This document shows positions 25,210-48,047 of a stretch of DNA of 64,000 bases, piece after piece. The notes under the pieces were generated by a model. It was not told where the DNA came from, made no database searches, and saw nothing but the letters and a program-made list of their open reading frames with translations. Position 1 is the first letter of the stretch, and each line of letters starts with the position of its first letter. Both the position numbers and the translations under genes were made by a program. The DNA is from Eledone cirrhosa (Eukaryota): NCBI GenBank assembly GCA_964016885.1, contig OZ024740.1:94612001-94676000 (forward strand), read 5' to 3'.

Positions 25210-25287
<78 letters not shown>
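25113..25287. repeat. Compound (CTC)(ATC)(TTC)(TTA) trinucleotide microsatellite
   Basis: Direct reading. The (TTA)n part is the 3' tail or target of the adjacent Dong-like LINE. Confidence 0.95.
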
Positions 25288-28045
25288 GTCGTTATTCCTT
25301 GAATCTCAGTCATTGATGTTGGTTAACTGGAAAGTCCGTTGGAATGAATATCAAGCCACTACCTGCAGCCTCAGATATTCAGGACGTATCGGAGGGTTCT
25401 TGCTGTTCCAAGCAAGCATGCCTTTTGAAGCGTTCCAAAAAGCGTGAAGGGGCCGATTTTCTTTAACCATCCCTGGAAACTTTTGGAGATAGTCCCCAGT
25501 GCGCCTAAGACAATCGGGATCACTTTGACTTCATGGCAGTTGCAAATCCTTTTCACCTCCCACTTTAGGTCCTGGTATCGGTTAACTTTCTCCCTCTCCT
25601 TCTCTTGCACTATCGTGTCGAAAGGGCAGGCCACATCCACAATCGGACACGATTTTTTTTCTTTGTCCACAACCACCAGGTCAGGTCTATTGTGTTCCAG
25701 TTTTTTGTCCGTCTGTATCCTAAAATCCCACAGCACATTCACCTGATTGTGCTCCATCACCGCCTCTGGCCTATGCTCATACCATTTCTCAGAATGTGGT
25801 AAATTGTTTACTGTGCACAGGTGCCAGTGGATCACCCTGCCCATCACATCGTGTCTCCAGCCCTTATAGTGGGTCTGGGCTAGGTGTTTACACTCGGACA
25901 CAATGTGAGCCACAGTCTCCTCTCTCTCACCACAGATCCTGCACAGTGGGCTAGCCTCCTCCTTGTAAATATGGTGCTTCAACCACTTCGTTTTGAGGGC
26001 CTGCTCCTGCGCAGCCATTAGCATTCCTTCTGTAGCCTTTTTGAGGTCTCCTCTTCTCAACCAGTTCCATGTCTGTGGATCTCTAAATTCAGTTTTCTCA
26101 AAGAAGGTATTATGAAGGGATTTTCCCTTAAGGCTGCTCTTCCTCCTTGATGTTATTTCCTCCTTGGACAACCCCTGGCCTACTGTCCCCTTCTTCAGTA
26201 CAGTTCTGAGCATTGGCGCCTTACTATAGGTCACGTATATGTATAGGTTGTTTTTCTCCATCTGAACACAGTCCTCTATGCTGATAAGACATCTTCCACC
26301 CTCAGATCTCCTTAGGTAGAGTCTATAGACATCACTCCTCTTGTGGAACATGTTGTAGATAGTCAATAGCTTCCTAGTCTTCCTATCCATTTCTTTTTGT
26401 TCAGCAACATTCCATCTCAGAATTCCCGCACTGTACCTAATAATAGACACAGCTCGGGAATTTACTGCACTTATGGCATTCCTACTGTTCAGATGTGACT
26501 TTAATACGCTCCTTACTCTCCGAAGGTATACAGTTCTTATCAATTCCTTCATTTTTTGTTCTTGATGTCATCAGACTCCAGAACGCCCAAATACTTGTAT
26601 CCTTCCTCATAGTCAATTTCCTTCTATCATCTCACCTGTTGGTATCTGGATTCCGTTACTTCTGCTGAACTTACCCCTCCTCATCACAATGACTCCACAC
26701 TTACTAATACCAAATTGCATACATATATCATTGCTGAAAATACGGAGAGTGTCAACAAGCACATCCAACTTCTTCTCACTCTTCACGAAGATCTTAAGAT
26801 CGTCCATGAAGAGGAGGTGATTGACGGTAAGCCCTCCCTTTCCCAACCTGTATCCTGCTTTTACTGTTCGCAGTCCACTGGTCAGGGGCATCAGCGCAAG
26901 GAGAAACAACAGAGGGGACAGACTATCTCCCTGGAAGATACCTCTCTTGATCTTCACGCTTCCCACGGATTCTCCAGTTGATGTTAACTCTGTTTCCCAG
27001 GACTTCATACTTTTGCCCAGCAACTGTCTGATTGTACCTGCCACCTTGAAGATCTCCAGGCTTTTGGTGATCCAAGAATGAGGCACCATGTCAAATGCCT
27101 TTTTGTAGTCTATCCATCCCATGGCAAGTCCAGTGTGTTTCCTCTTGCAATTCCTCATTACCATCTTATCAATAAGTAGCTGGTCCTTTGTACCACGTGA
27201 CTTTTTTCTGCATCCCTTCTGTTCGTCCGGTAACAAGTTGTTTGTGTGGAGGTGATGGTAGATTTCCTCAGACATAATGCTTGTCAACAGTTTCCACATT
27301 ACGGACAGACATGTGATAGGTCTATAATTGTTAACATCATTACCCTCGATTCGCTCTTTCATTATCAGAACTGTGGTACCTTTTGTGAACCTCTCTGGTA
27401 CGTCACCTGACATCAAGGAGTCATTCAACATGATTGTCAGTTTCGGGTGGAGGGATGTTATGTTTTAAATCCAATACCCCTGCACACCATCTGGGCCAGG
27501 TGATTTCAAGTTGGTTAGTTTTTTGGCCTGCCCCTTAAGTGTTTCAACTGTGATACTCAAATGAGTTTGTTGTTGTGCCTGTTCCTTGATCTCCTTCTGT
27601 ACTGTCTCAATCCACACTGCCTGGTCATTATGTTTAACATCCTGCTCCCATTTTCCTCTGCAGAATGTTTTAGTTTGTTCCCCCTCAGGGATCAGGTCGT
27701 TGCCTCTTTCTTTCCCTTCAAGCTGTCCAAACAGCATCTTCTGGTTGTTGTCGAACATGCGGTTCTGTCTATACTGACTGGCTCTGTTATCGTATCGTCT
27801 GAATTTTGCACTCATTGCTACAATGCGTTGCTTCAGTTCCTCAAGATAATATTTAGATTTTTCCTCCTAGTTTTGTATTTTATTTCAAGTCTATTTTTAT
27901 TGCCAAGGTGTTTTAGTGTCCCATTCAGTAGGGACTCAAGCTTTCCAATGCCATTTCTCATTTCCCTGATTTGACCACTCAGTCGTTTCTTCCACCAAGG
28001 CTCTGCTCTTTATTGTCTGTGGTTTCCTCTCGCTTTTTCTTTTTT
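25288..28045 (-). mobile_element. R4/Dong-clade non-LTR retrotransposon A (RT plus RLE endonuclease), 5'-truncated and disrupted
   Basis: KSPGPDG, YRPITCLSVMWKL, EQKGC, WIDYKKAFD, GIFQGDSLSPLLF, HLLFMDDLK; CRIC..EETVAHIVSEC, RHD, RPDLVVVDK..IVDVACP...KVNRY. The 3' end abuts (TAA)n. Confidence 0.92.
25371..27815 (-). pseudogene. Disrupted RT-RLE ORF of Dong-like element A
   Basis: Three ORF-track pieces (27465-27815, 26613-27431, 25371-26552) are separated by an in-frame TAA at ~27465 and by indels near 26550-26620. Confidence 0.88.
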
Positions 28046-28060
28046 ATTATTATTATTATT

Positions 28061-30045
28061 TGCATTTATCTTGCTTTATGTTTATACGAGTTATCACCAA
28101 GTCACAACCAGTGACCTCAAGAGACAACAAGGTCCGCCATGTTCAAGAAAGAACACACATATTCACACATGCATCCTTAGTGTTTAGACTTGTGATGTAC
28201 TTATATTGACAGGATCTTCCTTAGTATATGGGCAGTTCCCATTAGTACTATCTTTTGTATTTCTCCTATACGCGGGTTTCCTGGGATTTGCGATAAGTAG
28301 TCGTTAGACCCCTTAGGTATCATTCCCAGAGCGCCTACAACCACTGGTATTGTTTTAGTTCTCAATTTCCACATTTTTCCAATTTCTATCTCCAGGTCCT
28401 TATACTTGCTCAATTTTTCAAATGTTTTTATAGATACATTCTTGTCTATTGGAACAGACATATCAATTAGCAGGCATACCCTCCTTTGAAAGTCCTTCAA
28501 TATTATATCAGGTCTATTTGCATCTATTTTTCGGTCTGTTTGGATGCTAAAGTTCCACAAGATTGAGATGTGATCTTTTTCAAGTATGGGAGGTGGTTGA
28601 TGCTCCCACCAATTCTTTTGATGGGGCAGGTCAAAATGCTTACACATTATCCAATGTATGTATTGTGCAGCTCTGTCATGCCTGTTTAGGTATTCGGTTG
28701 GAGCTATAGGACTGCACATTGAAATTATATGGTCAATGGTCTCTGGTTGTTTTTTGCATACACGGCATAATGGGCTGCACCCATTTTTTATTATGTTGGC
28801 TTGGTAATTTTTTGTTGGCAGACACTGATCTTGTGCGGATATAATCAGTCCTTCAGTCTCCGATTTCAGTCCAGAGGATGCCAACCACTGATGGGTTAAA
28901 GTTTTGTCAACATCAGGATTGTTAGCTCGCTCTGGGTATTTTCCATACAGAGGCTTTTCTTGCCATTTCTTAGCCAGTTTCTGTAGCAGTTCTTTCTTTG
29001 CAGTTACTTTTACCTGCTTTGCTTTTTCTGTGTTTTCCATTTCAGCAGTAAATGGGACTTCTGAAATTTGTAGTCCATTACTGTATCTTTGTGCATCTTT
29101 TGTAATGGAATATGATCTTTTGGTGCTTTCGTGTTTCAAAACGAGTTCGATCATCCAATCATGTGATTCCCTTAGATATGTGGATAATCCAATTGTTGCA
29201 GTTTTCAACGCAATGTCTAACTGGATTAACCCACGTCCTCCTTCTTTCCTAGGGAGATATATTCTATCTATGTCTGCCTTAGGGTGATGCATTCTGTGCA
29301 TGGTTAAAAATTTTCGGATTTTTGTATCGAGCCTACGGATATCTGTGCTTGACCAGTTGATGACATTGTAACTGTAGGTTACTACTGGTATGGCAAGCGT
29401 GTTTATGGCATCGATCCTATTCCTTGCATTCAATTCCGTTCTTAAGATTGCTCTGACTCTGCGGTAACATTCCTTCCTTATCCTTTCCCTCATTGTCGAG
29501 TGCTTGATTCCGTCTCCTTCACAAACACCTAGATATTTGTAAGTTTGTTCTTGATCAAGCTCTCTTATCACGTTCCCCCGATCAAGATTAATGTCTGAAC
29601 TCTTCAGCAGCTTTCCTCTGGTGAACGTTGCTTTGGCGCATTTATCCAGTCCAAACTCCATTTTAATGTCATCACTGAACTGCTTCACAGTGGATAATAG
29701 CCCTTGCAATTGTTCATCATTTTTTGCGAATAGTTTCAGGTCATCCATGTAGAACAGGTGATTAATGGTTTTGTCATAGACTCTATATCCATGTTTTGTT
29801 TCATTGAGCATTTTACTTAATGGTATAAGTGCGATGCAGAATAAAAGCGGTGATAAAGAGTCACCCTGAAAAATTCCACAATTAATGTTAACTTCTCCAG
29901 CTTCCAGTGATTTTGTTTCACTATTCAAAAGGAGTGTCGTTCTCCATGTCCTCATACTGAATGACAAAAACCTCCTGACAACGGGGGATATTTTGAAAAT
30001 CTCTAAACATTTTTCAATCCAACTGTGTGGCAAACTATCAAATGC

Positions 30046-30049
<4 letters not shown>
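28061..30049 (-). mobile_element. R4/Dong-clade non-LTR retrotransposon B, 5'-truncated, flanked by (TAA)n on both sides
   Basis: Uninterrupted RT-CCHC-RLE frame, 140-bp 3' UTR and (TAA)n tail. Its protein sequence is clearly different from element A, so it is a distinct family. Confidence 0.92.
28201..30033 (-). CDS. Reverse transcriptase (from KAFD motif onward), CCHC zinc finger and PD-(D/E)xK restriction-like endonuclease (5'-truncated)
   Basis: 610 aa open frame with GIFQGDSLSPLLF, HLFYMDDLK, YKYLG, CRVCKKQPETIDHIISMC, RHD and RPDIILKD..LLIDMSVP...EKLSKY. It continues upstream as KAFDSL to the junction at ~30049. Confidence 0.9.
   Translation of the reverse strand: MPHSWIEKCLEIFKISPVVRRFLSFSMRTWRTTLLLNSETKSLEAGEVNINCGIFQGDSLSPLLFCIALIPLSKMLNETKHGYRVYDKTINHLFYMDDLKLFAKNDEQLQGLLSTVKQFSDDIKMEFGLDKCAKATFTRGKLLKSSDINLDRGNVIRELDQEQTYKYLGVCEGDGIKHSTMRERIRKECYRRVRAILRTELNARNRIDAINTLAIPVVTYSYNVINWSSTDIRRLDTKIRKFLTMHRMHHPKADIDRIYLPRKEGGRGLIQLDIALKTATIGLSTYLRESHDWMIELVLKHESTKRSYSITKDAQRYSNGLQISEVPFTAEMENTEKAKQVKVTAKKELLQKLAKKWQEKPLYGKYPERANNPDVDKTLTHQWLASSGLKSETEGLIISAQDQCLPTKNYQANIIKNGCSPLCRVCKKQPETIDHIISMCSPIAPTEYLNRHDRAAQYIHWIMCKHFDLPHQKNWWEHQPPPILEKDHISILWNFSIQTDRKIDANRPDIILKDFQRRVCLLIDMSVPIDKNVSIKTFEKLSKYKDLEIEIGKMWKLRTKTIPVVVGALGMIPKGSNDYLSQIPGNPRIGEIQKIVLMGTAHILRKILSI

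Positions 30050-30110
<61 letters not shown>
30050..30110. repeat. (ATT)n target microsatellite
   Basis: About 20 ATT units between the Dong B 5' junction and Tx1 copy 1. Confidence 0.97.
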
Positions 30111-30323
30111 GAATGCCATGGTTGACGGAGGCTCGGCTCTGTAAGGTATAGTAATTTTTAACCGTTAAAACAATTGTAAATTGTTTAAAACTTGAACCAA
30201 ATTGTTGATAAAGACACCCTCCTCCTCGTGAGAGGGGTCTTTCTGTCCGTTATTTGGCCCTTCGGGGTTAAATAACCAGTTATTGGGGTTTTGTACCCAA
30301 AATTTCATTTTAAACAAAAAAAC

Positions 30324-32417
30324 ATGGCTACCAAAAAGAAATTTCATACGTCACTCCCACTCATTCCGTCTTCTTCTTCCTCAATCATCACTACAGCAGA
30401 GAGAAGATTGTCTCTCTCCCTCCCTTCTTTAAATGTGTCTCTCTCCCTCCCTTCTCTTTCGCAAGCCACGAAAGAAAAGAAAAGTCTCGTGCAAAGCGTG
30501 CAAGGTTTCTCCACGACGACGACGACAGCGACGAAACAGGTGTGCGGGAAATACGAAAACCCAGTTCATTCGTCTGACGTCAGGAATAATAGCAGTAGCA
30601 GCCGTAATAACAACAGCAACAGTGACAATGAAAACAACAGTAGCAGCCGCAACAGCATCACCAGCAGCATAAACAACAACAGCATTAGCAGCAGCAACAC
30701 CAACAACAACCACAGCAACAGCGGCGGAGGCAGTAGTCGTAGTACCTGCAGCAACAAAAGTACCAGCAGCTCTGACGACAACAACAACAGCAGAGAAAAA
30801 CCAATCTCATTTGCAGGTATTGCGAAAAACCTGGAAACAATCCTCATAACAAATGAGGAATTAGAGGAAGCGAAGAAGATGGTGACAAAGAACGGACACC
30901 GAGCAATCTGCAAGGCAGCGAAAAATTTTTTCGAAACCCAAGAGCACTGTACGGTCACGTACCGTACAGTAAGTACAAAATCCCGTAGGGTGGAAAGAGC
31001 CACAGAGGCCCAAATACAAAAAGCCTTGGGGTCTGTGTGGCAGAGGAAAACGCACATCACCCGAGGCAAAAAATACGCCACCGTAGACGTACTTTTTGCC
31101 ACACCCCAGGAGGCAAAGGCCCAATCAGTAGTGACCCTAAGGAGCGAGGAAATGGTGTTGGTGCCCTCCTACTGTGGGCAAAAAATTGTGAGGGTCAAAC
31201 TGACCCACGTCCCCCCCGGAATGACCCCTTCTTGGCTGGCCGCGTCTGTCCTCGTCGGAATCGAGGACAAAACAACTGTACTGCAAGTACAGAAAAAAGT
31301 AAGAGAAGATTGGGTCGGCTCCTCCATTGAGATGCTAATCCAAACCAACCAGGAGTGCATCGAAGCTATCCCGGATGTGATAGACTTCGATAACGGCACT
31401 CAACTGCCCATAAGTGTTGAGGGCAAACGCCCGAAATGCTTTCGCTGTGGATCGAAGACTCACCTCAGGGCCTTCTGCAACGAGAAGACCATGAGAAAGG
31501 AGAAAACCCCCCTCCTCCCGAATCCGGTTCCACGGCTACCAGCAACAGGACAAGCGGCAACCAGGAACGATAGGTCCGTGGCACCCATACCCACTCCACG
31601 GAAATCAAAGACAGCAGCAGCAGTGGAAATATTAACAACAACAACAGCAATACCAAATGCAGCTGCAACAGAGACTCCAGTGCAAACATCACCAACAACA
31701 ACAAGTGAAAGAGTGGAGCTGGTACCCCTCCCCGACCTTACAGAATCAGACATGGAGTGTGAGGTGGGAGAGGGATGGCAAAAGGTCGTAAGAAGGCACA
31801 AACGCAGAAGCAGCGCATCGTCGCCTTTGAAAAGGGAGGAAAGAAATGAGAAAAGGGTAAAGTCTACTGCAAAGAGACCCACAGCAGCAACACCACCAAC
31901 ACCATCACCACCCACACCAGCACCACCATCACCACCGGCGACAACCCCACCGCCAACAACACCTTCAACACCACCACCACAAGCACCAACATCGCAAACA
32001 CAACAACAAAACACACACACCCAGCAACAACGACAAGAAAATAGCAGAACCACACCCCACCCCCAGAAAAACAAATGCACGGCAATAAACACACACAACA
32101 AGAAACTAATGACTTACATAATTGAACACACAGACATTTCACAACAGGACTACATAATACCAGCACCAATCAAAACGCCAACTAACATAAGACTGCTAAA
32201 AATAGCACAGAAACAATACACAAACATTAAAACGAAATTCCCCAACGCAGTTGGTGATTTCAGGGACCTAGGAGGAACCATTAATCGAAGAGTATATTCA
32301 GACATTCTCTTAGAAGAGCCGACGACCAGCCGAAGGGACGATTCAACGGTCCCTTCACCAGACGATCAAGTGAAAAGGGATGTAAAAACCATCCCTCCTC
32401 TACCAAAAGTACGGTAA
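30324..32417 (+). CDS. ORF1 protein (Ser/Asn-rich N-terminus, central folded domain, one CCHC zinc knuckle, Pro/Thr-rich tail)
   Basis: First ATG at 30324 (MATKKKF); the ORF track start at 30291 is TTG. CFRCGSKTHLRAFC fits C-x2-C-x4-H-x4-C, typical of Tx1 ORF1. Confidence 0.88.
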   Translation: MATKKKFHTSLPLIPSSSSSIITTAERRLSLSLPSLNVSLSLPSLSQATKEKKSLVQSVQGFSTTTTTATKQVCGKYENPVHSSDVRNNSSSSRNNNSNSDNENNSSSRNSITSSINNNSISSSNTNNNHSNSGGGSSRSTCSNKSTSSSDDNNNSREKPISFAGIAKNLETILITNEELEEAKKMVTKNGHRAICKAAKNFFETQEHCTVTYRTVSTKSRRVERATEAQIQKALGSVWQRKTHITRGKKYATVDVLFATPQEAKAQSVVTLRSEEMVLVPSYCGQKIVRVKLTHVPPGMTPSWLAASVLVGIEDKTTVLQVQKKVREDWVGSSIEMLIQTNQECIEAIPDVIDFDNGTQLPISVEGKRPKCFRCGSKTHLRAFCNEKTMRKEKTPLLPNPVPRLPATGQAATRNDRSVAPIPTPRKSKTAAAVEILTTTTAIPNAAATETPVQTSPTTTSERVELVPLPDLTESDMECEVGEGWQKVVRRHKRRSSASSPLKREERNEKRVKSTAKRPTAATPPTPSPPTPAPPSPPATTPPPTTPSTPPPQAPTSQTQQQNTHTQQQRQENSRTTPHPQKNKCTAINTHNKKLMTYIIEHTDISQQDYIIPAPIKTPTNIRLLKIAQKQYTNIKTKFPNAVGDFRDLGGTINRRVYSDILLEEPTTSRRDDSTVPSPDDQVKRDVKTIPPLPKVR

Positions 32418-32452
32418 GTGGTCTTTCCCATCTTTTCCACTCTATTTTAAAC

Positions 32453-35400
32453 ATGACCTCACTCAGAATAGGCAGCATAAATGCGCGTGGCTTGGGGTCG
32501 TCATGGAAGCAGGGTCACCTGCTCAACGACCTCAGGTCACTAAACATAGATGTAGTGGCCATCAGCGAGACCAGAATCTCCGAAGCACGGGCCTTCGCAC
32601 CGATCTTCGGCGGCTACGATGTGTACGCATCTCCCAGCCGTCCTGGATCGGGTGGAGGAGTTGCTGTGCTTTTTCGGAGAGGTTTGGATCTCGCCATACG
32701 GGCCATCTTCCTGGACCCAGAGGGTAAGCTGGTGGTGCTGGACGTGACCAGCGGAGACGGGCAAGCTTTCAGGCTAGTGGCCGTCTATGCCCCGACAGGA
32801 GCAGGGCGGCCTGATTTCTTCCGGCGTCTGGAGACCTTTCTTGGAACGTCCCGCTCTTTAGTGTTAGTGGGCGACTGGAACGGGATCTTAGATGCACGCT
32901 GGGACTGTGTGGGATTAGCGGATAGGGGTGGAGGGTGCAAGAGCCTCACCAACCTGCTCAGGCGTTTTGAACTGTCTGACAGGTACCGATTGGATTTCCC
33001 GAATGTGCCAATGTGGACTTGGACAAATCGCATAGGGTCATCCAGATCATATCTAGATAGAGTATTTTGTAGGGAAATAGATAGGTCTAGCATAGGCTGT
33101 CCACAATTCAAGATAGTCAGCTACACGGACCACAAATTCGTGATCTGTGTGCTTGACTTAGATAGGCTTCATAGACGAGGACCCGGCTACTGGAAGCTAA
33201 ACGCGTCCTTACCAGCGCGCAAGGCCTACAGAGACCGGATTAGCGAACTAGTTAAGCGGGCGTTGACGGGGGCCATCGTCAACAACAAGTGGTGGTTTGC
33301 TCTGAAAAGAGCGATTAGAATAGAATCGATTAGGTTTAGTAAGGCTTTAGCAATAGAGAAAAATAGAGCAGAGGGAGAACTAGTTAGAAAATTAGACGAG
33401 GCGCTTAGCAAAGGCATTGCGACCGACGTGCTTGCGGCGAAATTGGCCCTTGACCAATTCTTCAATGCAAAGCACGAAGGCTGCGTTGTCAGAGCTAGGG
33501 TGCGTGCTCTCAGACACGAGGGGACGAAAGCCGTTCAATGGGCCCGAGTGGCGGAGGCGCGTCGTGGCAACAAAGCCACGATCCGGTCTTTGGTGGACCA
33601 CGACGGGCGCATGCTACTCGATCCCGGGCAAATGTGTGAAGCTTTTCAGCGACACTTCGCTCAGCTGTTCGGGGGCAGCGGGGGGCCGGGTAGAGGGATG
33701 GACTTTAGTGTCTACCTCGACGGACTGCCGCGGCTCTCGGCCACTGAGGCGAAGTGTTGCGAAAAGCCGATAACAGCCGCTGAAGTAAGGGAGGCAATGA
33801 CTGGCTGCACAAGGGGTAAATCGCCTGGTTTGGATGGTCTGCCCTATGAACTTTACGTACAGATGCCAGACTTGTTCGGAGGCCTCTTGGCGGACGTCTA
33901 CTGCAACTGGCAACAGAACGGGAGAATTCCCAGTTCTGTGAGCCGAGGAGCGGTGGCACTGCTGAGAAAGGATCCGAACAAGGGGGATAACATAGACAAT
34001 TTCCGGCCCATAACTCTGCTAAACACAGAGTTTAAGATTTTGGCCAAGGTGCTAGCAAAGAGGTTGGCGCTTGTCGTTGGTGGTCTGGTGGGAGAGGCGC
34101 AGACATGCGCCATTCCCGACAGATCCATCCACGACAACCTCCACCTCATGCGATACATCGTAGAGAGGGTAGCTAGGGAACCTGGCACGGGTGGGTCCTT
34201 GATCAATTTAGATCAGTCGAAAGCTTTCGATAGGGTCGACCATCGTTACCTAGCGGCAGTCCTGAGGGCGGCTGGCTTTGGGCCCGTCTTCAGAGGCTGG
34301 ATCGCTGCCATGCACAGCGACATCTGCTCTGTGGTGAGAGTGAACGGTCACCTGTCGGAACCGTTCAACATCATGCGCTCGGTCCGCCAAGGATGTCCCC
34401 TCTCGTCCCTCTTGTACGTATTGACTCTCGAGCCATTACTGCACAAACTGGAGACGTTGAGGGGGGTCCCGCGCGAACTAGGATGCGGAAGATCCGTATC
34501 AGCATATGCGGACGATGTCACCGTAGTGGTGTCGAACGCCAAACACATCGAGGCGATCGGCACTACACTAAGAGAATACGAAGCGATGACAGGAGCAATG
34601 ATCAACCAGGAAAAGTCAGTGGGCCTGCAGCTCGGCACCTGGAGAGGCAGGTCCATGCCGTCCAACAGCGTCGTCGGACGCTGGACGGACGGACCGGTTA
34701 AATTGCTAGGGGTCTGGTTCGGTCCGGACCTCCAGACGGACAAAAACTGGGACGAGGTGACGAGCAGGGTGGCTTCTCTCACCCAGAAATGGGCCGAGAG
34801 GAAGCTATCCCTGAAAGGTCGAGCGGAGGTGGCTAACGCGTACATCGCGTCCGTCATCTGCTACCGCCTGACCGTCGTACCTTGTCCTAAGCCTCGCCTG
34901 ACTGTGCTGGAGCGTTTGCTCTTTCGCTTTTTGTGGAAGGGACGCGCTCCGATGGTCAGGCGGTCCATCTGTTGTCAACACCCGCTACGTGGAGGGCTGG
35001 GCATGCCGTGGCTGATGATGCGCAGGCACGCGCTCAGGCTACGACATCTCCACCTCTTCCTCGACGGTGATCAGGTGTGGTCGCCGTTTGCTAGACGCGT
35101 GTTTCCCCAGCTCGTTTCCTTGACGGAGCTGCAGTCCTGGGTCAAGCGAAGACCGAGAGGGAGCGCCTGGAGACTGGAATGTCTTCAGGCGCTCACAGCC
35201 CTCGACCAATCGGGCAATGTGATCGGTGGGAACTCCACCTCGGCGTTCTATAGAGGATTAGTGGAGGGGAAGAGCGACGACGTACTTGGGGAAACTCTAG
35301 GCGTCGACGAAAATCAACTAGCCAATCTCTTCGGAAGAACTTTCGGGCCAGGGCCTATGGACAACTTCCAGAAATCTCTGGCCTGGCAGTGCTACCGAGG

Positions 35401-35872
35401 AGCCTTGCCAGTTCGGGATAAACTCTACAGGCATGGAGGTGCCGTCAGCCGGGCATGTCCGAGATGCGCGCAGGGCGACGAAACCGTCCTGCACGCACTC
35501 GTCCAGTGTCCGAAAATTGCTGACTTGTGGGTTTATGTCGAACACCTGCTGTCGCGTTTAGGACGGATCCGGCTATCATCTGAGTCCATCGTGAGGATTG
35601 CCCCGCCCTCCTCCTTTAGCCGGGAAGGGCAGGCAGTTTTTATCTGCCTGGTGGCCATGGCGAAAGAGATAGTATGGTGGACACGTTTGAAAGGGCTGAA
35701 GACGAGCACTTACCTCTTCGGTGATGCTCTGATTGACTTTTTCAAATTTCATTTGAAAAGGAAAATCAGAGTAGAGAGGGAAGTGCTCTCTTCCCAGCAT
35801 TTTGTTGAAAGATGGGTGAGAGAAGCAAGAATGGCCCGAGTGAATGGGCCTACTCTGAGCATATATCTGTAA
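32453..35872 (+). CDS. ORF2: APE endonuclease, reverse transcriptase and C-terminal CCHC (1139 aa)
   Basis: SINARGL, ISET, VYAP, GDWN, YLDR, TDH (APE); KSPGLDGLP, FRPITLLNTEFKILAK, LDQSKAFDRVDH, VRQGCPLS, YADD (RT); CPRC..DETVLHALVQC. Confidence 0.96.
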   Translation: MTSLRIGSINARGLGSSWKQGHLLNDLRSLNIDVVAISETRISEARAFAPIFGGYDVYASPSRPGSGGGVAVLFRRGLDLAIRAIFLDPEGKLVVLDVTSGDGQAFRLVAVYAPTGAGRPDFFRRLETFLGTSRSLVLVGDWNGILDARWDCVGLADRGGGCKSLTNLLRRFELSDRYRLDFPNVPMWTWTNRIGSSRSYLDRVFCREIDRSSIGCPQFKIVSYTDHKFVICVLDLDRLHRRGPGYWKLNASLPARKAYRDRISELVKRALTGAIVNNKWWFALKRAIRIESIRFSKALAIEKNRAEGELVRKLDEALSKGIATDVLAAKLALDQFFNAKHEGCVVRARVRALRHEGTKAVQWARVAEARRGNKATIRSLVDHDGRMLLDPGQMCEAFQRHFAQLFGGSGGPGRGMDFSVYLDGLPRLSATEAKCCEKPITAAEVREAMTGCTRGKSPGLDGLPYELYVQMPDLFGGLLADVYCNWQQNGRIPSSVSRGAVALLRKDPNKGDNIDNFRPITLLNTEFKILAKVLAKRLALVVGGLVGEAQTCAIPDRSIHDNLHLMRYIVERVAREPGTGGSLINLDQSKAFDRVDHRYLAAVLRAAGFGPVFRGWIAAMHSDICSVVRVNGHLSEPFNIMRSVRQGCPLSSLLYVLTLEPLLHKLETLRGVPRELGCGRSVSAYADDVTVVVSNAKHIEAIGTTLREYEAMTGAMINQEKSVGLQLGTWRGRSMPSNSVVGRWTDGPVKLLGVWFGPDLQTDKNWDEVTSRVASLTQKWAERKLSLKGRAEVANAYIASVICYRLTVVPCPKPRLTVLERLLFRFLWKGRAPMVRRSICCQHPLRGGLGMPWLMMRRHALRLRHLHLFLDGDQVWSPFARRVFPQLVSLTELQSWVKRRPRGSAWRLECLQALTALDQSGNVIGGNSTSAFYRGLVEGKSDDVLGETLGVDENQLANLFGRTFGPGPMDNFQKSLAWQCYRGALPVRDKLYRHGGAVSRACPRCAQGDETVLHALVQCPKIADLWVYVEHLLSRLGRIRLSSESIVRIAPPSSFSREGQAVFICLVAMAKEIVWWTRLKGLKTSTYLFGDALIDFFKFHLKRKIRVEREVLSSQHFVERWVREARMARVNGPTLSIYL

Positions 35873-36133
35873 ATTAAAGGTGGAAAACTGGGAGAGGGCA
35901 CTTGCCTTGGTGGTCAGGGTCATTGTGGCTTTTTACTGGGCTTTCTCCACAAATGTCCCTCCGAAGTCTCCCCCCTATTGGGGAATTTTTCATTGTTATT
36001 TTCATTGTTATTTTTGTTACATCCTCTGTTTTTGTTTTTTTTACACGCAGAAATGCCCATTTGTACCGTCCTGCATTGTCCTGCACTGTCCTTAATGTCT
36101 ACTTTATGTAAACCCTTGTGGTTAATAAAGAAA

Positions 36134-36135
<2 letters not shown>

Positions 36136-36198
<63 letters not shown>
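36136..36198. repeat. (ATT)21 between the tandem copies
   Basis: Direct reading. Confidence 0.97.
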
Positions 36199-36411
36199 GA
36201 ATGCCATGGTTGACGGAGGCTCGGCTCTGTAAGGTATAGTAATTTTTAACCGTTAAAACAATTGTAAATTGTTTAAAACTTGAACCAAATTGTTGATAAA
36301 GACACCCTCCTCCTCGTGAGAGGGGTCTTTCTGTCCGTTATTTGGCCCTTCGGGGTTAAATAACCAGTTATTGGGGTTTTGTACCCAAAATTTCATTTTA
36401 AACAAAAAAAC

Positions 36412-38505
36412 ATGGCTACCAAAAAGAAATTTCATACGTCACTCCCACTCATTCCGTCTTCTTCTTCCTCAATCATCACTACAGCAGAGAGAAGATTGTC
36501 TCTCTCCCTCCCTTCTTTAAATGTGTCTCTCTCCCTCCCTTCTCTTTCGCAAGCCACGAAAGAAAAGAAAAGTCTCGTGCAAAGCGTGCAAGGTTTCTCC
36601 ACGACGACGACGACAGCGACGAAACAGGTGTGCGGGAAATACGAAAACCCAGTTCATTCGTCTGACGTCAGGAATAATAGCAGTAGCAGCCGTAATAACA
36701 ACAGCAACAGTGACAATGAAAACAACAGTAGCAGCCGCAACAGCATCACCAGCAGCATAAACAACAACAGCATTAGCAGCAGCAACACCAACAACAACCA
36801 CAGCAACAGCGGCGGAGGCAGTAGTCGTAGTACCTGCAGCAACAAAAGTACCAGCAGCTCTGACGACAACAACAACAGCAGAGAAAAACCAATCTCATTT
36901 GCAGGTATTGCGAAAAACCTGGAAACAATCCTCATAACAAATGAGGAATTAGAGGAAGCGAAGAAGATGGTGACAAAGAACGGACACCGAGCAATCTGCA
37001 AGGCAGCGAAAAATTTTTTCGAAACCCAAGAGCACTGTACGGTCACGTACCGTACAGTAAGTACAAAATCCCGTAGGGTGGAAAGAGCCACAGAGGCCCA
37101 AATACAAAAAGCCTTGGGGTCTGTGTGGCAGAGGAAAACGCACATCACCCGAGGCAAAAAATACGCCACCGTAGACGTACTTTTTGCCACACCCCAGGAG
37201 GCAAAGGCCCAATCAGTAGTGACCCTAAGGAGCGAGGAAATGGTGTTGGTGCCCTCCTACTGTGGGCAAAAAATTGTGAGGGTCAAACTGACCCACGTCC
37301 CCCCCGGAATGACCCCTTCTTGGCTGGCCGCGTCTGTCCTCGTCGGAATCGAGGACAAAACAACTGTACTGCAAGTACAGAAAAAAGTAAGAGAAGATTG
37401 GGTCGGCTCCTCCATTGAGATGCTAATCCAAACCAACCAGGAGTGCATCGAAGCTATCCCGGATGTGATAGACTTCGATAACGGCACTCAACTGCCCATA
37501 AGTGTTGAGGGCAAACGCCCGAAATGCTTTCGCTGTGGATCGAAGACTCACCTCAGGGCCTTCTGCAACGAGAAGACCATGAGAAAGGAGAAAACCCCCC
37601 TCCTCCCGAATCCGGTTCCACGGCTACCAGCAACAGGACAAGCGGCAACCAGGAACGATAGGTCCGTGGCACCCATACCCACTCCACGGAAATCAAAGAC
37701 AGCAGCAGCAGTGGAAATATTAACAACAACAACAGCAATACCAAATGCAGCTGCAACAGAGACTCCAGTGCAAACATCACCAACAACAACAAGTGAAAGA
37801 GTGGAGCTGGTACCCCTCCCCGACCTTACAGAATCAGACATGGAGTGTGAGGTGGGAGAGGGATGGCAAAAGGTCGTAAGAAGGCACAAACGCAGAAGCA
37901 GCGCATCGTCGCCTTTGAAAAGGGAGGAAAGAAATGAGAAAAGGGTAAAGTCTACTGCAAAGAGACCCACAGCAGCAACACCACCAACACCATCACCACC
38001 CACACCAGCACCACCATCACCACCGGCGACAACCCCACCGCCAACAACACCTTCAACACCACCACCACAAGCACCAACATCGCAAACACAACAACAAAAC
38101 ACACACACCCAGCAACAACGACAAGAAAATAGCAGAACCACACCCCACCCCCAGAAAAACAAATGCACGGCAATAAACACACACAACAAGAAACTAATGA
38201 CTTACATAATTGAACACACAGACATTTCACAACAGGACTACATAATACCAGCACCAATCAAAACGCCAACTAACATAAGACTGCTAAAAATAGCACAGAA
38301 ACAATACACAAACATTAAAACGAAATTCCCCAACGCAGTTGGTGATTTCAGGGACCTAGGAGGAACCATTAATCGAAGAGTATATTCAGACATTCTCTTA
38401 GAAGAGCCGACGACCAGCCGAAGGGACGATTCAACGGTCCCTTCACCAGACGATCAAGTGAAAAGGGATGTAAAAACCATCCCTCCTCTACCAAAAGTAC
38501 GGTAA
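36412..38505 (+). CDS. ORF1 protein, copy 2 (same translation as copy 1)
   Basis: The ORF-track translation matches copy 1, including the CCHC knuckle. Confidence 0.88.
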   Translation: MATKKKFHTSLPLIPSSSSSIITTAERRLSLSLPSLNVSLSLPSLSQATKEKKSLVQSVQGFSTTTTTATKQVCGKYENPVHSSDVRNNSSSSRNNNSNSDNENNSSSRNSITSSINNNSISSSNTNNNHSNSGGGSSRSTCSNKSTSSSDDNNNSREKPISFAGIAKNLETILITNEELEEAKKMVTKNGHRAICKAAKNFFETQEHCTVTYRTVSTKSRRVERATEAQIQKALGSVWQRKTHITRGKKYATVDVLFATPQEAKAQSVVTLRSEEMVLVPSYCGQKIVRVKLTHVPPGMTPSWLAASVLVGIEDKTTVLQVQKKVREDWVGSSIEMLIQTNQECIEAIPDVIDFDNGTQLPISVEGKRPKCFRCGSKTHLRAFCNEKTMRKEKTPLLPNPVPRLPATGQAATRNDRSVAPIPTPRKSKTAAAVEILTTTTAIPNAAATETPVQTSPTTTSERVELVPLPDLTESDMECEVGEGWQKVVRRHKRRSSASSPLKREERNEKRVKSTAKRPTAATPPTPSPPTPAPPSPPATTPPPTTPSTPPPQAPTSQTQQQNTHTQQQRQENSRTTPHPQKNKCTAINTHNKKLMTYIIEHTDISQQDYIIPAPIKTPTNIRLLKIAQKQYTNIKTKFPNAVGDFRDLGGTINRRVYSDILLEEPTTSRRDDSTVPSPDDQVKRDVKTIPPLPKVR

Positions 38506-38540
38506 GTGGTCTTTCCCATCTTTTCCACTCTATTTTAAAC

Positions 38541-41500
38541 ATGACCTCACTCAGAATAGGCAGCATAAATGCGCGTGGCTTGGGGTCGTCATGGAAGCAG
38601 GGTCACCTGCTCAACGACCTCAGGTCACTAAACATAGATGTAGTGGCCATCAGCGAGACCAGAATCTCCGAAGCACGGGCCTTCGCACCGATCTTCGGCG
38701 GCTACGATGTGTACGCATCTCCCAGCCGTCCTGGATCGGGTGGAGGAGTTGCTGTGCTTTTTCGGAGAGGTTTGGATCTCGCCATACGGGCCATCTTCCT
38801 GGACCCAGAGGGTAAGCTGGTGGTGCTGGACGTGACCAGCGGAGACGGGCAAGCTTTCAGGCTAGTGGCCGTCTATGCCCCGACAGGAGCAGGGCGGCCT
38901 GATTTCTTCCGGCGTCTGGAGACCTTTCTTGGAACGTCCCGCTCTTTAGTGTTAGTGGGCGACTGGAACGGGATCTTAGATGCACGCTGGGACTGTGTGG
39001 GATTAGCGGATAGGGGTGGAGGGTGCAAGAGCCTCACCAACCTGCTCAGGCGTTTTGAACTGTCTGACAGGTACCGATTGGATTTCCCGAATGTGCCAAT
39101 GTGGACTTGGACAAACCGCATAGGGTCATCCAGATCATATCTAGATAGAGTATTTTGTAGGGAAATAGATAGGTCTAGCATAGGCTGTCCACAATTCAAG
39201 ATAGTCAGCTACACGGACCACAAATTCGTGACCTGTGTGCTTGACTTAGATAGGCTTCATAGACGAGGACCCGGCTACTGGAAGCTAAACGCGTCCTTAC
39301 CAGCGCGCAAGGCCTACAGAGACCGGATTAGCGAACTAGTTAAGCGGGCGTTGACGGGGGCCATCGTCAACAACAAGTGGTGGTTTGCTCTGAAAAGAGC
39401 GATTAGAATAGAATCGATTAGGTTTAGTAAGGCTTTAGCAATAGAGAAAAATAGAGCAGAGGGAGAACTAGTTAGAAAATTAGACGAGGCGCTTAGCAAA
39501 GGCATTGCGACCGACGTGCTTGCGGCGAAATTGGCCCTTGACCAATTCTTCAATGCAAAGCACGAAGGCTGCGTTGTCAGAGCTAGGGTGCGTGCTCTCA
39601 GACACGAGGGGACGAAAGCCGTTCAATGGGCCCGAGTGGCGGAGGCGCGTCGTGGCAACAAAGCCACGATCCGGTCTTTGGTGGACCACGACGGGCGCAT
39701 GCTACTCGATCCCGGGCAAATGTGTGAAGCTTTTCAGCGACACTTCGCTCAGCTGTTCGGGGGCAGCGGGGGGCCGGGTAGAGGGATGGACTTTAGTGTC
39801 TACCTCGACGGGCTGCCGCGGCTCTCGGCCACTGAGGCGAGGTGTTGCGAAAAGCCGATAACAGCCGCTGAAGTACGGGAGGCAATGACTGGCTGCACAA
39901 GGGGTAAATCGCCTGGTTTGGATGGTCTGCCCTATGAACTTTACGTACAGATGCCAGACTTGTTCGGAGGCCTCTTGGCGGACGTCTACTGCAACTGGCA
40001 ACAGAACGGGAGAATTCCCAGTTCTGTGAGCCGAGGAGCGGTGGCACTGCTGAGAAAGGATCCGAACAAGGGGGATAACATAGACAATTTCCGGCCCATA
40101 ACTCTGCTAAACACAGAGTTTAAGATTTTGGCCAAGGTGCTAGCAAAGAGGTTGGCGCTTGTCGTTGGTGGTCTGGTGGGAGAGGCGCAGACATGCGCCA
40201 TTCCCGACAGATCCATCCACGACAACCTCCACCTCATGCGATACATCGTAGAGAGGGTAGCTAGGGAACCTGGCACGGGTGGGTCCTTGATCAATTTAGA
40301 TCAGTCGAAAGCTTTCGATAGGGTCGACCATCGTTACCTAGCGGCAGTCCTGAGGGCGGCTGGCTTTGGGCCCGTCTTCAGAGGCTGGATCGCTGCCATG
40401 CACAGCGACATCTGCTCTGTGGTGAGAGTGAACGGTCACCTGTCGGAACCGTTCAACATCATGCGCTCGGTCCGCCAAGGATGTCCCCTCTCGTCCCTCT
40501 TGTACGTATTGACTCTCGAGCCATTACTGCACAAACTGGAGACGTTGAGGGGAGTCCCGCGCGAACTAGGATGCGGAAGATCCGTGTCAGCATATGCGGA
40601 CGATGTCACCGTAGTGGTGTCGAACGCCAAACACATCGAGGCGATCGGCACTACACTAAGAGAATACGAAGCGGTGACAGGAGCAATGATCAACCAGGAA
40701 AAGTCAGTGGGCCTGCAGCTCGGCACCTGGAGAGGCAGGTCCATGCCGTCCAACAGCGTCGTCGGGCGCTGGACGGACGGACCGGTTAAATTGCTAGGGG
40801 TCTGGTTCGGTCCGGACCTCCAGACGGACAAAAACTGGGACGAGGTGACGAGCAGGGTGGCTTCTCTCACCCAGAAATGGGCGGAGAGGAAGCTATCCCT
40901 GAAAGGTCGAGCGGAGGTGGCTAACGCGTACATCGCGTCTGTCATCTGCTACCGCCTAACCGTCGTACCTTGTCCTAAGCCTCGCCTGACTGCGCTGGAG
41001 CGTTTGCTCTTTCGCTTTTTGTGGAAGGGACGTGCTCCGATGGTCAGGCGGTCCATCTGTTGTCAACACCCGCTACGTGGAGGGCTGGGCATGCCGTGGC
41101 TGATGATGCGCAGGCACGCGCTCAGGCTACGACATCTCCACCTCTTCCTCGACGGTGATCAGGTGTGGTCGCCGTTTGCTAGACGCGTTTTTCCCCAGCT
41201 CGTTTCCTTGACGGAGCTGCAGTCCTGGGTCAAGCGAAGACCGAGAGGGAGCGCCTGGAGACTGGAATGTCTTCAGGCGCTCACAGCCCTCGACCAATCG
41301 GGCAATGTGATCGGTGGAAACTCCACCTCGGCGTTCTATAGAGGATTAGTGGAGGGGAAGAGCGACGACGTACTTGGGGAAACTCTAGGCGTCGACGAAA
41401 ATCAACTAGCCAATCTCTTCGGAAGAACTTTCGGGCCAGGGCCTATGGACAACTTCCAGAAATCTCTGGCCTGGCAGTGCTACCGAGGAGCCTTGCCAGT

Positions 41501-41960
41501 TCGGGATAAACTCTACAGGCATGGAGGTGCCGTCAACCGGGCATGTCCGAGATGCGCGCAGGGCGACGAAACCGTCCTGCACGCACTCGTCCAGTGTCCG
41601 AAAATTGCTGACTTGTGGGTTTATGTCGAACACCTGCTGTCGCGTTTAGGACGGATCCAGCTATCATCTGAGTCTATCGTGAGGATTGCCCCGCCCTCCT
41701 CCTTTAGCCGGGAAGGGCAGGCAGTTTTTATCTGTCTGGTGGCCATGGCGAAAGAGATAGTATGGTGGACACGTTTGAAAGGGCTGAAGACGAGCACTTA
41801 CCTCTTCGGTGATGCTCTGATTGACTTTTTCAAATTTCATTTGAAAAGGAAAATCAGAGTAGAGAAGGAAGTGCTCTCTTCCCAGCATTTTGTTGAAAGA
41901 TGGGTGAGAGAAGCAAGAATGGCCCGAGTGAATGGGCCGACTCTGAGTATATATCTGTAA
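38541..41960 (+). CDS. ORF2 APE-RT-CCHC, copy 2 (1139 aa)
   Basis: Same motifs as copy 1, with 7 amino-acid differences visible by eye. Confidence 0.96.
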   Translation: MTSLRIGSINARGLGSSWKQGHLLNDLRSLNIDVVAISETRISEARAFAPIFGGYDVYASPSRPGSGGGVAVLFRRGLDLAIRAIFLDPEGKLVVLDVTSGDGQAFRLVAVYAPTGAGRPDFFRRLETFLGTSRSLVLVGDWNGILDARWDCVGLADRGGGCKSLTNLLRRFELSDRYRLDFPNVPMWTWTNRIGSSRSYLDRVFCREIDRSSIGCPQFKIVSYTDHKFVTCVLDLDRLHRRGPGYWKLNASLPARKAYRDRISELVKRALTGAIVNNKWWFALKRAIRIESIRFSKALAIEKNRAEGELVRKLDEALSKGIATDVLAAKLALDQFFNAKHEGCVVRARVRALRHEGTKAVQWARVAEARRGNKATIRSLVDHDGRMLLDPGQMCEAFQRHFAQLFGGSGGPGRGMDFSVYLDGLPRLSATEARCCEKPITAAEVREAMTGCTRGKSPGLDGLPYELYVQMPDLFGGLLADVYCNWQQNGRIPSSVSRGAVALLRKDPNKGDNIDNFRPITLLNTEFKILAKVLAKRLALVVGGLVGEAQTCAIPDRSIHDNLHLMRYIVERVAREPGTGGSLINLDQSKAFDRVDHRYLAAVLRAAGFGPVFRGWIAAMHSDICSVVRVNGHLSEPFNIMRSVRQGCPLSSLLYVLTLEPLLHKLETLRGVPRELGCGRSVSAYADDVTVVVSNAKHIEAIGTTLREYEAVTGAMINQEKSVGLQLGTWRGRSMPSNSVVGRWTDGPVKLLGVWFGPDLQTDKNWDEVTSRVASLTQKWAERKLSLKGRAEVANAYIASVICYRLTVVPCPKPRLTALERLLFRFLWKGRAPMVRRSICCQHPLRGGLGMPWLMMRRHALRLRHLHLFLDGDQVWSPFARRVFPQLVSLTELQSWVKRRPRGSAWRLECLQALTALDQSGNVIGGNSTSAFYRGLVEGKSDDVLGETLGVDENQLANLFGRTFGPGPMDNFQKSLAWQCYRGALPVRDKLYRHGGAVNRACPRCAQGDETVLHALVQCPKIADLWVYVEHLLSRLGRIQLSSESIVRIAPPSSFSREGQAVFICLVAMAKEIVWWTRLKGLKTSTYLFGDALIDFFKFHLKRKIRVEKEVLSSQHFVERWVREARMARVNGPTLSIYL

Positions 41961-42220
41961 ACTAAAGGTGGAAAACTGGGAGAGGGCACTTGCCTTGGTG
42001 GTCAGGGTCATTATGGCTTTTTACTGGGCTTTCTCCACAAATGTCCCTCCGAAGTCTCCCCCCTATTGGGGAATTTTTCATTGTTATTTTCATTGTTATT
42101 TTTGTTACATCCTCTGTTTTTCTTTTTTTACACGCAGAAATGCCCATTTGTACCGTCCTGCATTGTCCTGCACTGTCCTTAATGTCTACTTTATGTAAAC
42201 CCTTGTGGTTAATAAAGAAA

Positions 42221-42277
<57 letters not shown>

Positions 42278-42286
42278 TCATCCTTA

Positions 42287-43219: not shown

Positions 43220-46200
43220 GTTACGGACTTGTGAAGACGTGTTATTGTGAGACTCGACATTTAAAATCTATTTGTAGAAAATGATTGTGGTTAATTGCAA
43301 AAATGACACTAATTATTTTTTTCTGAAAATAAGATAACAGATTTTCGCTTCGGCCTAAATGTCGAAACATTCTTTAAAAAAAAAAAATCTTAAAATACAA
43401 ACTTGACGGTCGCAAAAGATTTCGCCCGCAAAAGAGAGCGATTCTTTCGATCAACAGAACACCAACTTTTCTTCCAACAGCAGTAGCAGTAGCAGCTGTA
43501 CTAATATCAGTATTACCAACAAACACGCTTATATCGTGAATTTGGTTTTCGAAATTAACGCAGTCGCCACTACAAAATAACTCATCAAAGAAACAAAAAA
43601 AGAATACCACAGCCATTACAACCAACATACTCACCAGAACTACAACCACCGCCGACACTAGCACCTCCATCACCGCCACCACAACAACAACTACAACAAT
43701 AGCACAACCACCACCGCTACAACAACAATAACAACAGCAACATCAGCAGCAGAGACAGAGATGTGTCAGAGACTGCATCAGCAGTAATATTGGAGCCGGT
43801 AGCAACACCAGCAGCACCAGCAGCCGCAGTATAGATAGCAGAATCACCAGCATCAGAGGCAATAACAGCGGTAGCTGCAACATCAGCGCTAGACCAAACG
43901 TAACGTTTGCGAGGGCCTCAAACAAAAGTAAACGGTCACGGTGACCCTCGGGAAAAGGGATAAAGGCAGACAAATGGTAAAACATTATGAACACTGGGTC
44001 AGCCTAACTCCTCCATCAGACATATATGTACGGTATTGTAGCGTACATTAGCATAATAATTGTTTCTACTTTTGGCACAAGGCCAGCAATTATCCAGTGT
44101 ATTACTGGTACTTTATTTTATCAACTCCGTAAGGATGAACTGCAAAGTTAACCTAGGCGGGATTTGAACTCAGAAGGGCAAGAGCCGTAACTCTATGCGT
44201 CAAAGCATGGCGTCCCACTCTCTACCGATACTGCCAATCCACCTCCCTTTTATTAGCGTAATAATACGCTTTTTTAGAGCTGGTCTCGTACTCTCAGGTA
44301 CAAAATGTTTTGGGAGCCGTATGGACTAAAGATACAGACAACACACGAGAGAATATAGGGAACTGCGGATGTGTTTATTGCAATCCAAAAATGAGCCACA
44401 GAACACTCCATGATGGAAATAAAAAGCGATGAGCTCTGTCTTGTCCCAAGCCACTACGGCAAAATACTCGAGTGCGAGTCACCCAGGTTCCCAACGCATT
44501 TGCCACTCAAAATCTGTTTTCGACCACATCGAAGATGACACCAGCTTCCTATAAAAAAAGAAGAATCATAGATGGCAACTGGTCCCCGTCAGGAATGGAG
44601 CAGCTGATCGAACTGGACCAGAAAAAAATTAAGCAAATCACAGATATCATAGACCTCCCATACAACAGCCCCCTCACGCTGACAGGCAAGCGTTGAAGGC
44701 AACAATGCCTAACAATTCCTGAAACAACCGACTTAAATGGCTTCTGTTTTCAGTAATAAGCACAAACTCAGCAACGGTAGCAAGAGCACCACTACCATCC
44801 ACCAAGCGAGAAGCAAAACAAACACCACAACCACCATCCACATGACAGAAACCACAACATCTCTGGAGGACACATCCGTTTTTGAACGGATTGTGACGAG
44901 GATGAGGGATTGAAAACAATCAAAATAAACAAAAAACAAAGAATGAATTATTTTGCTTCACCCAAAAAAGAAGGGGTTGAAACAAACAAAGAAATGCAAG
45001 AGATAAAAGCCCCGTAGACCACCACTGATAACATCATCAACTGACCCATCGTGTAAAACACCAATGTCATCACCATTATTAACTCCAACATCACCACCAA
45101 GACCACCGCAAAAATAAAATCACGAATAACAAACCAAACCGAAACAAACACACATGCGCAACCACATTAGGCGTAAAAACGATTAAAATCGATAAAACTG
45201 CAACGCACTACAGGGCTTTAAACACGAACAGCAAACAATGTAGAGCACTAATGCTAGCACATCACATGTACCACAGAGATAAACAAAACAATAACTCAAA
45301 AATTCACACTTCCCACATACATAGAATTAAGACGTATCTCCAAAAATACATATACACATTTTAAAGGAAAAATACCTAATGTCAGTTTAGATTTCCTCGA
45401 AATAGTCCCCTGACGGATGTACAAAGTTATATTTGCGGAGAGGGCTTCAAATAGCTAGAAGGACGGAGGAATTGTCCTTTCTCCACAATAATGATATAAG
45501 TTGTATTTCCCAGCTTTTCCTACTATTTTCAAATATGGGCTTCTTCAGAATAGATAGCGTAACTGCACATGGCATGGGGTATCATGGAAGCAGGGTCACG
45601 GGTCAACGATTTCAGGTCAATGATCATAGTTGTGGAGGACATCAGTGCGATCAAAAGTCCCAAAGCACAATTCTTTGCAACCAATTACGAGGCGTATGCT
45701 TAAAAGGTCTCCCTAAACATGGAGGAGGAGTCGCTATGTTGTTTAGGAAAGGACTCGATCTCGTGATACAGATCATTATGCTGGACCCAAATGGTAAGTC
45801 AGTGGTGCTGGACGTGACAGGCAACGAAAGCTATGCTTCAGCCTATTGGCTCTTATCTCCATCACCATGCAGGTCATTGTGTAATCTAACGTTTTCATTT
45901 GTTTTCCTCAATGAAGTTAATGGTTTAATGTTCCACCACCTCCGGTGATATTCTTTTAGGGGGGAGGGGCACAAATAAGCTCTGCTGCCAACGCCAGATT
46001 CGACACATAGTACCCCACAACCAGCATTAGCACCGGCAATTGAAATCGCAGACAACACACTTAAAACAAACATAGACACATCTAAATCAATACCATGACC
46101 ACCACCAACACCACCTCCACCACCAACATAATCACCCGAATGTAAACAAGCGCAACCAGTCAACATCAAAACACACAAGTCCTTGGTATATTAACAAGAG

Positions 46201-47705: not shown

Positions 47706-48047
47706 TATTATCATTATTATCATTATTATTATCATCATCATTATCATCATCATTATCAGTATCCTCATCATATTAAAATGAACTTTCTGGAAAGAATACA
47801 TGATGACATTTATGAGTGCTGAATGCCGACACGGATAATTGTTGAAAGAATATCTGTGACAAAATTTTGAATTTCAGTATATTTTACACGAAATTTAAAT
47901 TATAAAACGTTAATGAATCCACTGACGTAATTAATGAAGCAAGTTATTGTTGATGAATTTACCACGTTCAAAACTACTCATGAGAACGAATCGAGGTTTT
48001 TGTGTCTTTATCGCTGCACAAACAGAATAAAAACCGTGTCCACGCGT

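Follow-up and report, generated by a model that had tools for sequence, protein, structure and literature searches.

Two intact L1/Tx1-type LINEs within an (ATT)n microsatellite of Eledone cirrhosa: a probable case of preference for ATT repeats

Does a long interspersed nuclear element (LINE) that lies between ATT repeats prefer such repeats as its target, or does it carry ATT as its tail only? This question is raised by a 64,000-nt stretch of Eledone cirrhosa DNA (hereafter, the window; GCA_964016885.1, contig OZ024740.1, positions 94,612,001 to 94,676,000 of the forward strand), in which two full-length L1/Tx1-type LINEs, copies 1 and 2, are arranged head to tail in the order (ATT)20–copy 1–(ATT)21–copy 2–(ATT)18 without poly(A) (Table 1). 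The two copies share their first bases (GAATGCC) and their last bases (AATAAAGAAATC), and the tail repeat of both is the same in unit and phase as the repeat of the 5′ flank. The coordinates of the copies and of the three perfect runs thus bear out the preliminary description of this DNA, according to which the copies had a common start base, a common end base, no poly(A), and (ATT)n on every side. Outside the cluster, ATT/AAT runs of at least five units account for only 15 of 46,800 window bases (0.03%), and we counted this rarity in favor of an ATT preference. We consider it reasonably probable, from the sequence of this one locus, that the pair represents a young L1/Tx1-type LINE with a preference for (ATT)n microsatellites that landed in a pre-existing run.

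Both open reading frames (ORFs), ORF1 (697 aa) and ORF2 (1139 aa), were uninterrupted in both copies and were separated by a 35-nt spacer in each; each copy also has a 5′ untranslated region of 213 nt and a 3′ one of about 263 nt, the latter with AATAAA six bases ahead of the repeat. ORF2 matched PF03372 (53.7 bits) and PF00078 (100.5 bits), both over the Pfam cut-off, as well as PF13966 (zf-RVT; 33.4 bits versus a cut-off of 27.5). When ORF2 was aligned to human L1 ORF2p, the APE residues N10, E39, Y112, D141, N143, D202, and H227 fell on the L1 catalytic positions. QGCPLS, YADD, and the C-terminal zinc finger were all present. Conversely, ORF1 had no match in a Pfam search, and a homologue search returned nothing at E ≤ 0.001 among 960 candidates; its homology was later seen directly in the loci of a sister lineage (see below). 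A structural model of ORF1 residues 161 to 390, built from a 7-sequence alignment (pLDDT 78.7), resembled tandem RNA recognition motif (RRM) proteins (E 2e-4, with a modest TM of about 0.33–0.41), and ORF1 is predicted to carry two RNA-binding RRM folds. An ORF2 with APE, reverse transcriptase (RT), zinc finger, and catalytic residues, together with a separate upstream RNA-binding ORF1, is the organization of an APE-type non-long-terminal-repeat retrotransposon of the L1 group, and the combination of intact ORFs and low divergence is one that an active LINE would show. On sequence grounds, then, the pair is an intact, young L1/Tx1-type APE LINE. The earlier claim that both ORFs are intact with all catalytic motifs holds, and the part of the "recently active" reading that concerns intactness and youth is supported by the open ORFs and the low divergence.

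Next to copy 1, two 5′-truncated R4/Dong-like LINEs (D1 and the older D2) lie within the common ATT/TAA repeat in the orientation opposite to that of the Tx1-type copies. Both are single-ORF elements that are bounded by TAA at both ends and in which the RT is followed by CCHC and a PD-(D/E)xK endonuclease, an organization that, with the (TAA)n borders, fits the R4/Dong group. The homologues of D1 are RT proteins of about 1100–1250 aa without an APE Pfam match, and among these matches none was named Dong or R4. According to the parts of the literature covered here, to which all of our citations refer, Dong-like elements carry an REL endonuclease and have (TAA)n targets in insects, molluscs, and cnidarians (PMC7998251); PMC3812793 gives Dong targets as well, although it files Dong among APE elements. 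Being 5′ of copy 1 as well as of D1, the upstream (ATT)20 is the tail of neither element. Furthermore, the repeat would be older than the young insertions, since D2, which has decayed with five stops, also adjoins TAA at its 5′ end. The ATT/TAA run thus probably pre-existed the insertion of the Tx1-type copies, as far as these arrangements of sequence indicate. A 5′ flank that would correspond to the target repeat rather than to a tail was found at this locus only, as the (ATT)20 that is 5′ of copy 1 and D1. As an observation in its own right, D1 and D2 lie one behind the other in a microsatellite composed of (GAT)n, (GAA)n, and (TAA)n (25129–30110).

The second copy was not a simple duplicate of the first. 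The two were 99.55% identical, and the 27 alignment columns that differed were all located beyond base 2917 of the element, on its 3′ side (under an even spread, P would be about 3e-8). Among the 23 differences in ORF2, 16 were synonymous and 7 nonsynonymous (pN/pS 0.14; P 5e-6 to 3e-4 versus neutrality, depending on transition weighting), showing purifying selection; because 16 of the 23 were synonymous, the differences arose in functional source lineages. We then compared both copies with contigs of the public runs X1, X4, and X7, which may be from species other than that of the window, using the 40 of 489 variant rows that were displayed; ATT runs were left out when the contigs were placed, no record extended past the element ends, and the raw run X22 contributed 3 reads. 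Eight displayed rows corresponded to differences between copies 1 and 2, and X4 carried the copy 2 letter at all eight. A 626-nt X4 contig (34226–34851) had five mismatches to copy 1, all of them copy 2 letters, and was identical to copy 2 throughout, and at sites 34870 and 34945 X4 agreed with copy 1, as judged by the mismatch count of another contig. At six sites in the 5′ half (30467, 31076, 31175, 31517, 31739, and 32090), both copies differed from X4 as well as from 86% or more of the X1 and X7 depth; therefore, the 5′ identity of the copies does not reflect family-wide invariance. Some alleles of copy 1 were rare in the public contigs. Together, these comparisons provide good support for the interpretation that copy 2 is a mosaic with a copy-1-type 5′ half and a common-type 3′ half, and the identity of the 5′ parts limits divergence since copying to about 0.1%. 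As a mosaic, copy 2 cleanly documents how adjacent LINE copies exchange a 5′ module.

To place the element, we searched proteins and built a quick 55-row tree from RT regions. The best protein matches were an NCBI protein (79%) and one of Argonauta hians (69%), followed by a set at about 38–47% and then by vertebrate Tx1-like proteins, including Xenopus TX1, at about 30%; this order of matches points to an octopod host. The best match to a named element was Xenopus Tx1L ORF2 (P14381, P0091; 326 bits, 29% identity), with human L1 ORF2p at 179 bits; no named Kibi, Koshi, Keno, or Dewa protein was among the matches. In the tree, the 3 octopod rows and 14 further rows formed one 17-row lineage (SH-aLRT 100%), which stood in an open fork beside a group with Xenopus TX1 and most fish sequences; none of the rows was a mammalian L1, Kibi, Koshi, Keno, or Dewa. 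A sister lineage whose ORF2 is 41% identical (loci L055–L092 and L095–L112), and which grouped with this element at 100% support, made up 40 of the 42 loci of an alignment-based scan, on animal-type contigs in one metagenome-assembled genome (MAG) record. We infer, with protein length and a motif among the grounds, that these loci correspond to tree rows P0011/P0038. The sister elements form head-to-tail arrays with a period of about 6.4–6.9 kb, up to about 70 kb in length, with direct tail-to-head joints, and adjoining units are 97–99% identical in ORF2 yet can be 30% different in their 5′ part. Because these arrays show both tandem order and 5′ module exchange without ATT, the two are lineage traits and are not by themselves proof of a regenerated target. 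Consequently, the earlier claim that the tandem pile-up shows a target regenerated by the tail is weakened, both by these arrays and by mosaic copy 2. What stands of the ATT-targeting reading is a young, intact LINE in a probably pre-existing ATT run, as judged from (ATT)20, D1, and D2.

The arrays also displayed features that are set down here separately. Those of the contigs of G001 (C4, C5, C7, C9, C15, C19, and others) consist of mixed subfamilies with different ORF1/5′ parts and contain repeated 3.1-kb truncated units with one truncation point. The contigs look animal (microsatellite-rich, with flanks of 32–39% GC) though they are filed as a bacterial MAG. A sister-array motif that was first read as a joint like that of the E. 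cirrhosa pair was dropped, as array-end mapping placed it inside the 3′ untranslated region (UTR). A scan of 12 loci for tRNA genes found none, and the sister loci that were scanned gave no Rfam match.

Tx1 families are known with (TC)n, (TTC)n, (TTCC)n, or (TTTC)n as their target, and microsatellite specificity has been defined as more than 20% of copies being flanked by the target repeat (PMC4494074, which gives additional Tx1 targets in Fig. 3 and Fig. S5). Here, both of the two intact copies, at a single locus, are flanked by (ATT)n. No ATT-targeting Tx1 element appeared among the listings and passages that the literature search covered; Repbase and Dfam were outside its scope and may contain one. 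Several observations weigh against an ATT preference. The endonuclease has a hairpin loop of 9 residues, as does the promiscuous human L1, in place of the 11 residues of Tx1L, TRAS1, and most sister proteins, and this loop reads the minor groove (PMC1950540). Octopus vulgaris has 80 L1-Tx1 families, 13 of them recently active with 421 insertions, and 5 recently active Dong-R4 families (PMC13282606); about 421 recent insertions and an assumed ATT content of 0.1–0.3% could give about one chance hit per genome, and the present locus was chosen for its striking look. The 5′ end of a decayed older relative downstream of the pair was not located (the alignment starts at 44229), and a decayed fragment about 70% identical to the ORF2 DNA (63623–63979, plus strand) has no ATT on its 5′ side. 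ATT/AAT or poly(A) was present at 0 of 6 starts and 0 of 4 ends of the sister arrays (10 boundaries among the 16 regions fetched), these boundaries being set where BLAST coverage was lost and possibly off for divergent subfamilies. In addition, since copy 2 derives in part from copy-1-type sequence, the pair may stem from a single targeting event and not from two.

These observations lead to a different account, which we regard as possible though clearly less likely: ATT is the tail of the family only, insertion occurs into AT-rich DNA without real specificity, the run was reached by chance or by pairing between tail and target, and the pair reflects a concatemer habit through template jumping or insertion at the element's own end. 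The direct joints, mixed subfamilies, and non-repeat flanks of the long sister arrays are in line with it, as are the L1-length loop and the fragment at 63623 without an ATT flank. I elements are not known to target specific sites. They end in TAA repeats (PMC3747384). R2 proteins template-jump and yield head-to-tail products (PMC11371274), and the identical 5′ halves are in keeping with a single event that copied an RNA of the copy 1 type one and a half times. By our analysis, such a one-event dimer fits as well, and it would cut the evidence for targeting to one event. Even so, one landing would still be needed in a run with the unit, strand, and phase of the tail, and such runs are rare; moreover, repeat spacers are absent from the sister arrays, which makes the ATT spacer particular to this family. 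A tandem duplication at the DNA level, produced when ATT runs exchanged unequally, or an artefact of assembly could explain the identity of the first 2917 bases, in which some 24 differences would be predicted from the rate in the 3′ part; no public contig spans the whole element, and unequal exchange in a formerly longer array could yield the same mosaic. Against this, the 3′ differences are neither sequencing errors nor neutral decay after duplication, because they are mostly synonymous and their copy 2 letters recur in contigs of other organisms (8/8 displayed sites in X4), and the boundaries of the repeated unit are precisely those of the element, so that it includes no duplicated unique flank. 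The pair is therefore not a plain segmental or assembly duplication, an origin that the preliminary description had named as refuting its reading and that we regard as improbable.

Under the preferred reading, that of an element with an ATT preference, the established pathway of target-primed reverse transcription suggests the following course. Having nicked the (AAT)n strand, the APE domain would leave a free end that primes reverse transcription on the 3′ end of the RNA, giving an insertion bounded by ATT on both sides, while Dong-like elements would nick the opposite strand. Copy 1 would have inserted first, and an RNA of the common type would then have inserted at the ATT run behind it; the 5′ 2.0–2.9 kb of copy 2 would have been copied from copy-1-type sequence, either through a template switch during insertion or through later gene conversion. 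As a broader and tentative proposal, an octopod LINE lineage may have gained (ATT)n specificity independently of vertebrate Kibi/Koshi, with a loop of L1 length, and may share the microsatellite with Dong-type restriction-like endonuclease (RLE) elements via the opposite-strand nick; head-to-tail copies would arise as a new insertion completes its 5′ half on its neighbor, a step that could seed arrays like those of the sister LINEs. If the preference is true, an ATT-directed APE endonuclease would join the small set of microsatellite-targeting LINEs, and the locus would be a natural example, with both kinds side by side, of APE and RLE elements that have converged on a single repeat. If it fails, the element would be a young LINE of the ordinary kind whose tail is a repeat. 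With its ORFs intact, targeting can be tested directly, and the sister lineage, which lacks ATT, can serve as a comparison for what determines specificity.

Table 1. Positions of the L1/Tx1-type copies, ATT runs, and related elements in the window
Feature	Position	Strand	Description
D2, older 5′-truncated R4/Dong-like LINE	25288..28045	-	5 in-frame stops, 37% identical to D1; then (TAA)16 and (GAA)n(GAT)n
D1, 5′-truncated R4/Dong-like RLE LINE	28061..30050	-	open 615 codons to stop; CCHC, RHD, PD..D..K motifs; then (TAA)5 at 28046-28060
(ATT)20, perfect	30051..30110	.	5′ of both copy 1 (+) and D1 (-); probable remnant of the original target repeat
Copy 1, L1/Tx1-type LINE, full length	30111..36135	+	6025 nt
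5′UTR, copy 1	30111..30323	+	213 nt, two stem-loops, fold z = -2.4
ORF1, copy 1	30324..32417	+	697 aa: N-terminus of low complexity, two RRM folds (predicted), one CX2CX4HX4C knuckle at residues 372-385, C-terminal part rich in Pro/Thr
ORF2, copy 1	32453..35872	+	1139 aa: APE endonuclease, reverse transcriptase, zf-RVT
3′UTR, copy 1	35873..36135	+	263 nt, T-rich, AATAAA 6 nt ahead of the ATT run; fold not unusual (z = 0.03)
(ATT)21, perfect	36136..36198	.	separates copies 1 and 2
Copy 2, L1/Tx1-type LINE, full length, probable mosaic	36199..42222	+	6024 nt
ORF1, copy 2	36412..38505	+	open, 697 aa
Interval with the putative mosaic breakpoint, copy 2	38179..39115	+	copy 1 equivalents 32091-33027; last shared rare allele 32090, first copy 1/copy 2 difference 33028
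ORF2, copy 2	38541..41960	+	open, 1139 aa
(ATT)18, perfect	42223..42276	.	3′ of copy 2
Decayed older relative of the Tx1-type element	44229..47771	+	homology from 44229, tblastn pieces 44229-47122 with stops; mixed ATT/ATC tail 47696-47771

The older relative had been described as a neighbor ending in ATT/ATC repeats; the mixed tail agrees with this, the relative itself being decayed, and its 3′UTR homology scored 78 against a shuffle maximum of 39. A degenerate ATT-like stretch near 43200 was dropped as its 5′ flank, having an identity to (ATT)n of 0.50–0.58 and no 5′UTR alignment. Right after the last ATT run lies a stretch (42277–42340) starting with TCTATATTACTAAAA, which may resemble Helitron-type 5′ ends. 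Elsewhere in the window, we noted a satellite of about 16 units at 53926–62329 (period 521–522 bp, about 94% identity) that ends in an inverted 207-bp piece (62123–62329) and whose period exceeds the limit of the tandem finder; a 205-aa ORF at 5720–6337 (plus strand) with a GIY-YIG match slightly above the cut-off, which probably represents the terminal part of a Penelope-like element; two self-inverted elements resembling miniature inverted-repeat transposable elements (2069–2271 and 20921–21350); and a 620-bp dispersed repeat in opposite orientations at 2153–2766 and 62629–63249 (88% identity). There were no Rfam matches in the window.

Beyond the window, parts of near-identical DNA were found in 20 of the 24 runs listed, and at least half of the element's 31-mers were present in 11 runs (8 organisms, 7 studies); the listing had no RNA run among these. 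This sharing of at least 50% of the 31-mers by 8 organisms points to slow divergence, recent host radiation, or transfer between hosts. Over the matching contigs of X1 (49,312) and X7 (59,115), summed depth, which gives no copy number, was several-fold greater across ORF2 than across the 5′ part, an excess that fits a multicopy family with 5′ truncation or the presence of relatives sharing ORF2. A metagenome scan yielded 54 loci with best segments 20–48% identical, and an ATT/AAT run of at least 15 bases was seen in none of the 27 inspected, which represent distant lineages mostly without flanks. Scans of viral contigs and a first GTDB scan showed no relatives. One distant Tx1-like element (L093:3036-10137, 28% identity) lies between two U1 snRNA matches and is possibly tied to U1 arrays.

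Of the lineages whose flanks were visible, the closest is the sister lineage, which shares with this element an ORF1 that is homologous and has one CCHC, an AATAAAG close to the end, the lack of poly(A), head-to-tail order, and varied 5′ modules on the same ORF2; in contrast to this element, it has long arrays, direct joints without an ATT spacer or flank, and an 11-residue loop. The L1-Tx1 families of O. vulgaris (PMC13282606) are probably elements of the same kind, and this family may be among them; the parts of that paper covered, including a term search of its supplement, contain no target analysis of these families, and a term search of the covered part of PMC9115989 gave no mention of Tx1. 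Xenopus Tx1L targets the Tx1D transposon and has a hairpin loop two residues longer than that of this element. The Kibi (TC)n, Koshi (TTC)n, and crocodilian (TTCC)n/(TTTC)n Tx1 families (PMC4494074, PMC3812793) are, like this pair, two-ORF APE LINEs of the L1/Tx1 radiation that lie in a microsatellite, whereas this pair differs from them in its ATT repeat unit, its invertebrate host, and its grouping with a 40–43% lineage apart from the Xenopus TX1 clade. Finally, the Dong/R4 clade has the repeat in common with the Tx1-type pair, with two such elements in the same run, but these neighbors have a single ORF, a restriction-like endonuclease, the opposite orientation, and an RT 22–24% identical to the Tx1-type ORF2, so that a target common to Dong-like and Tx1-type elements would be convergent.

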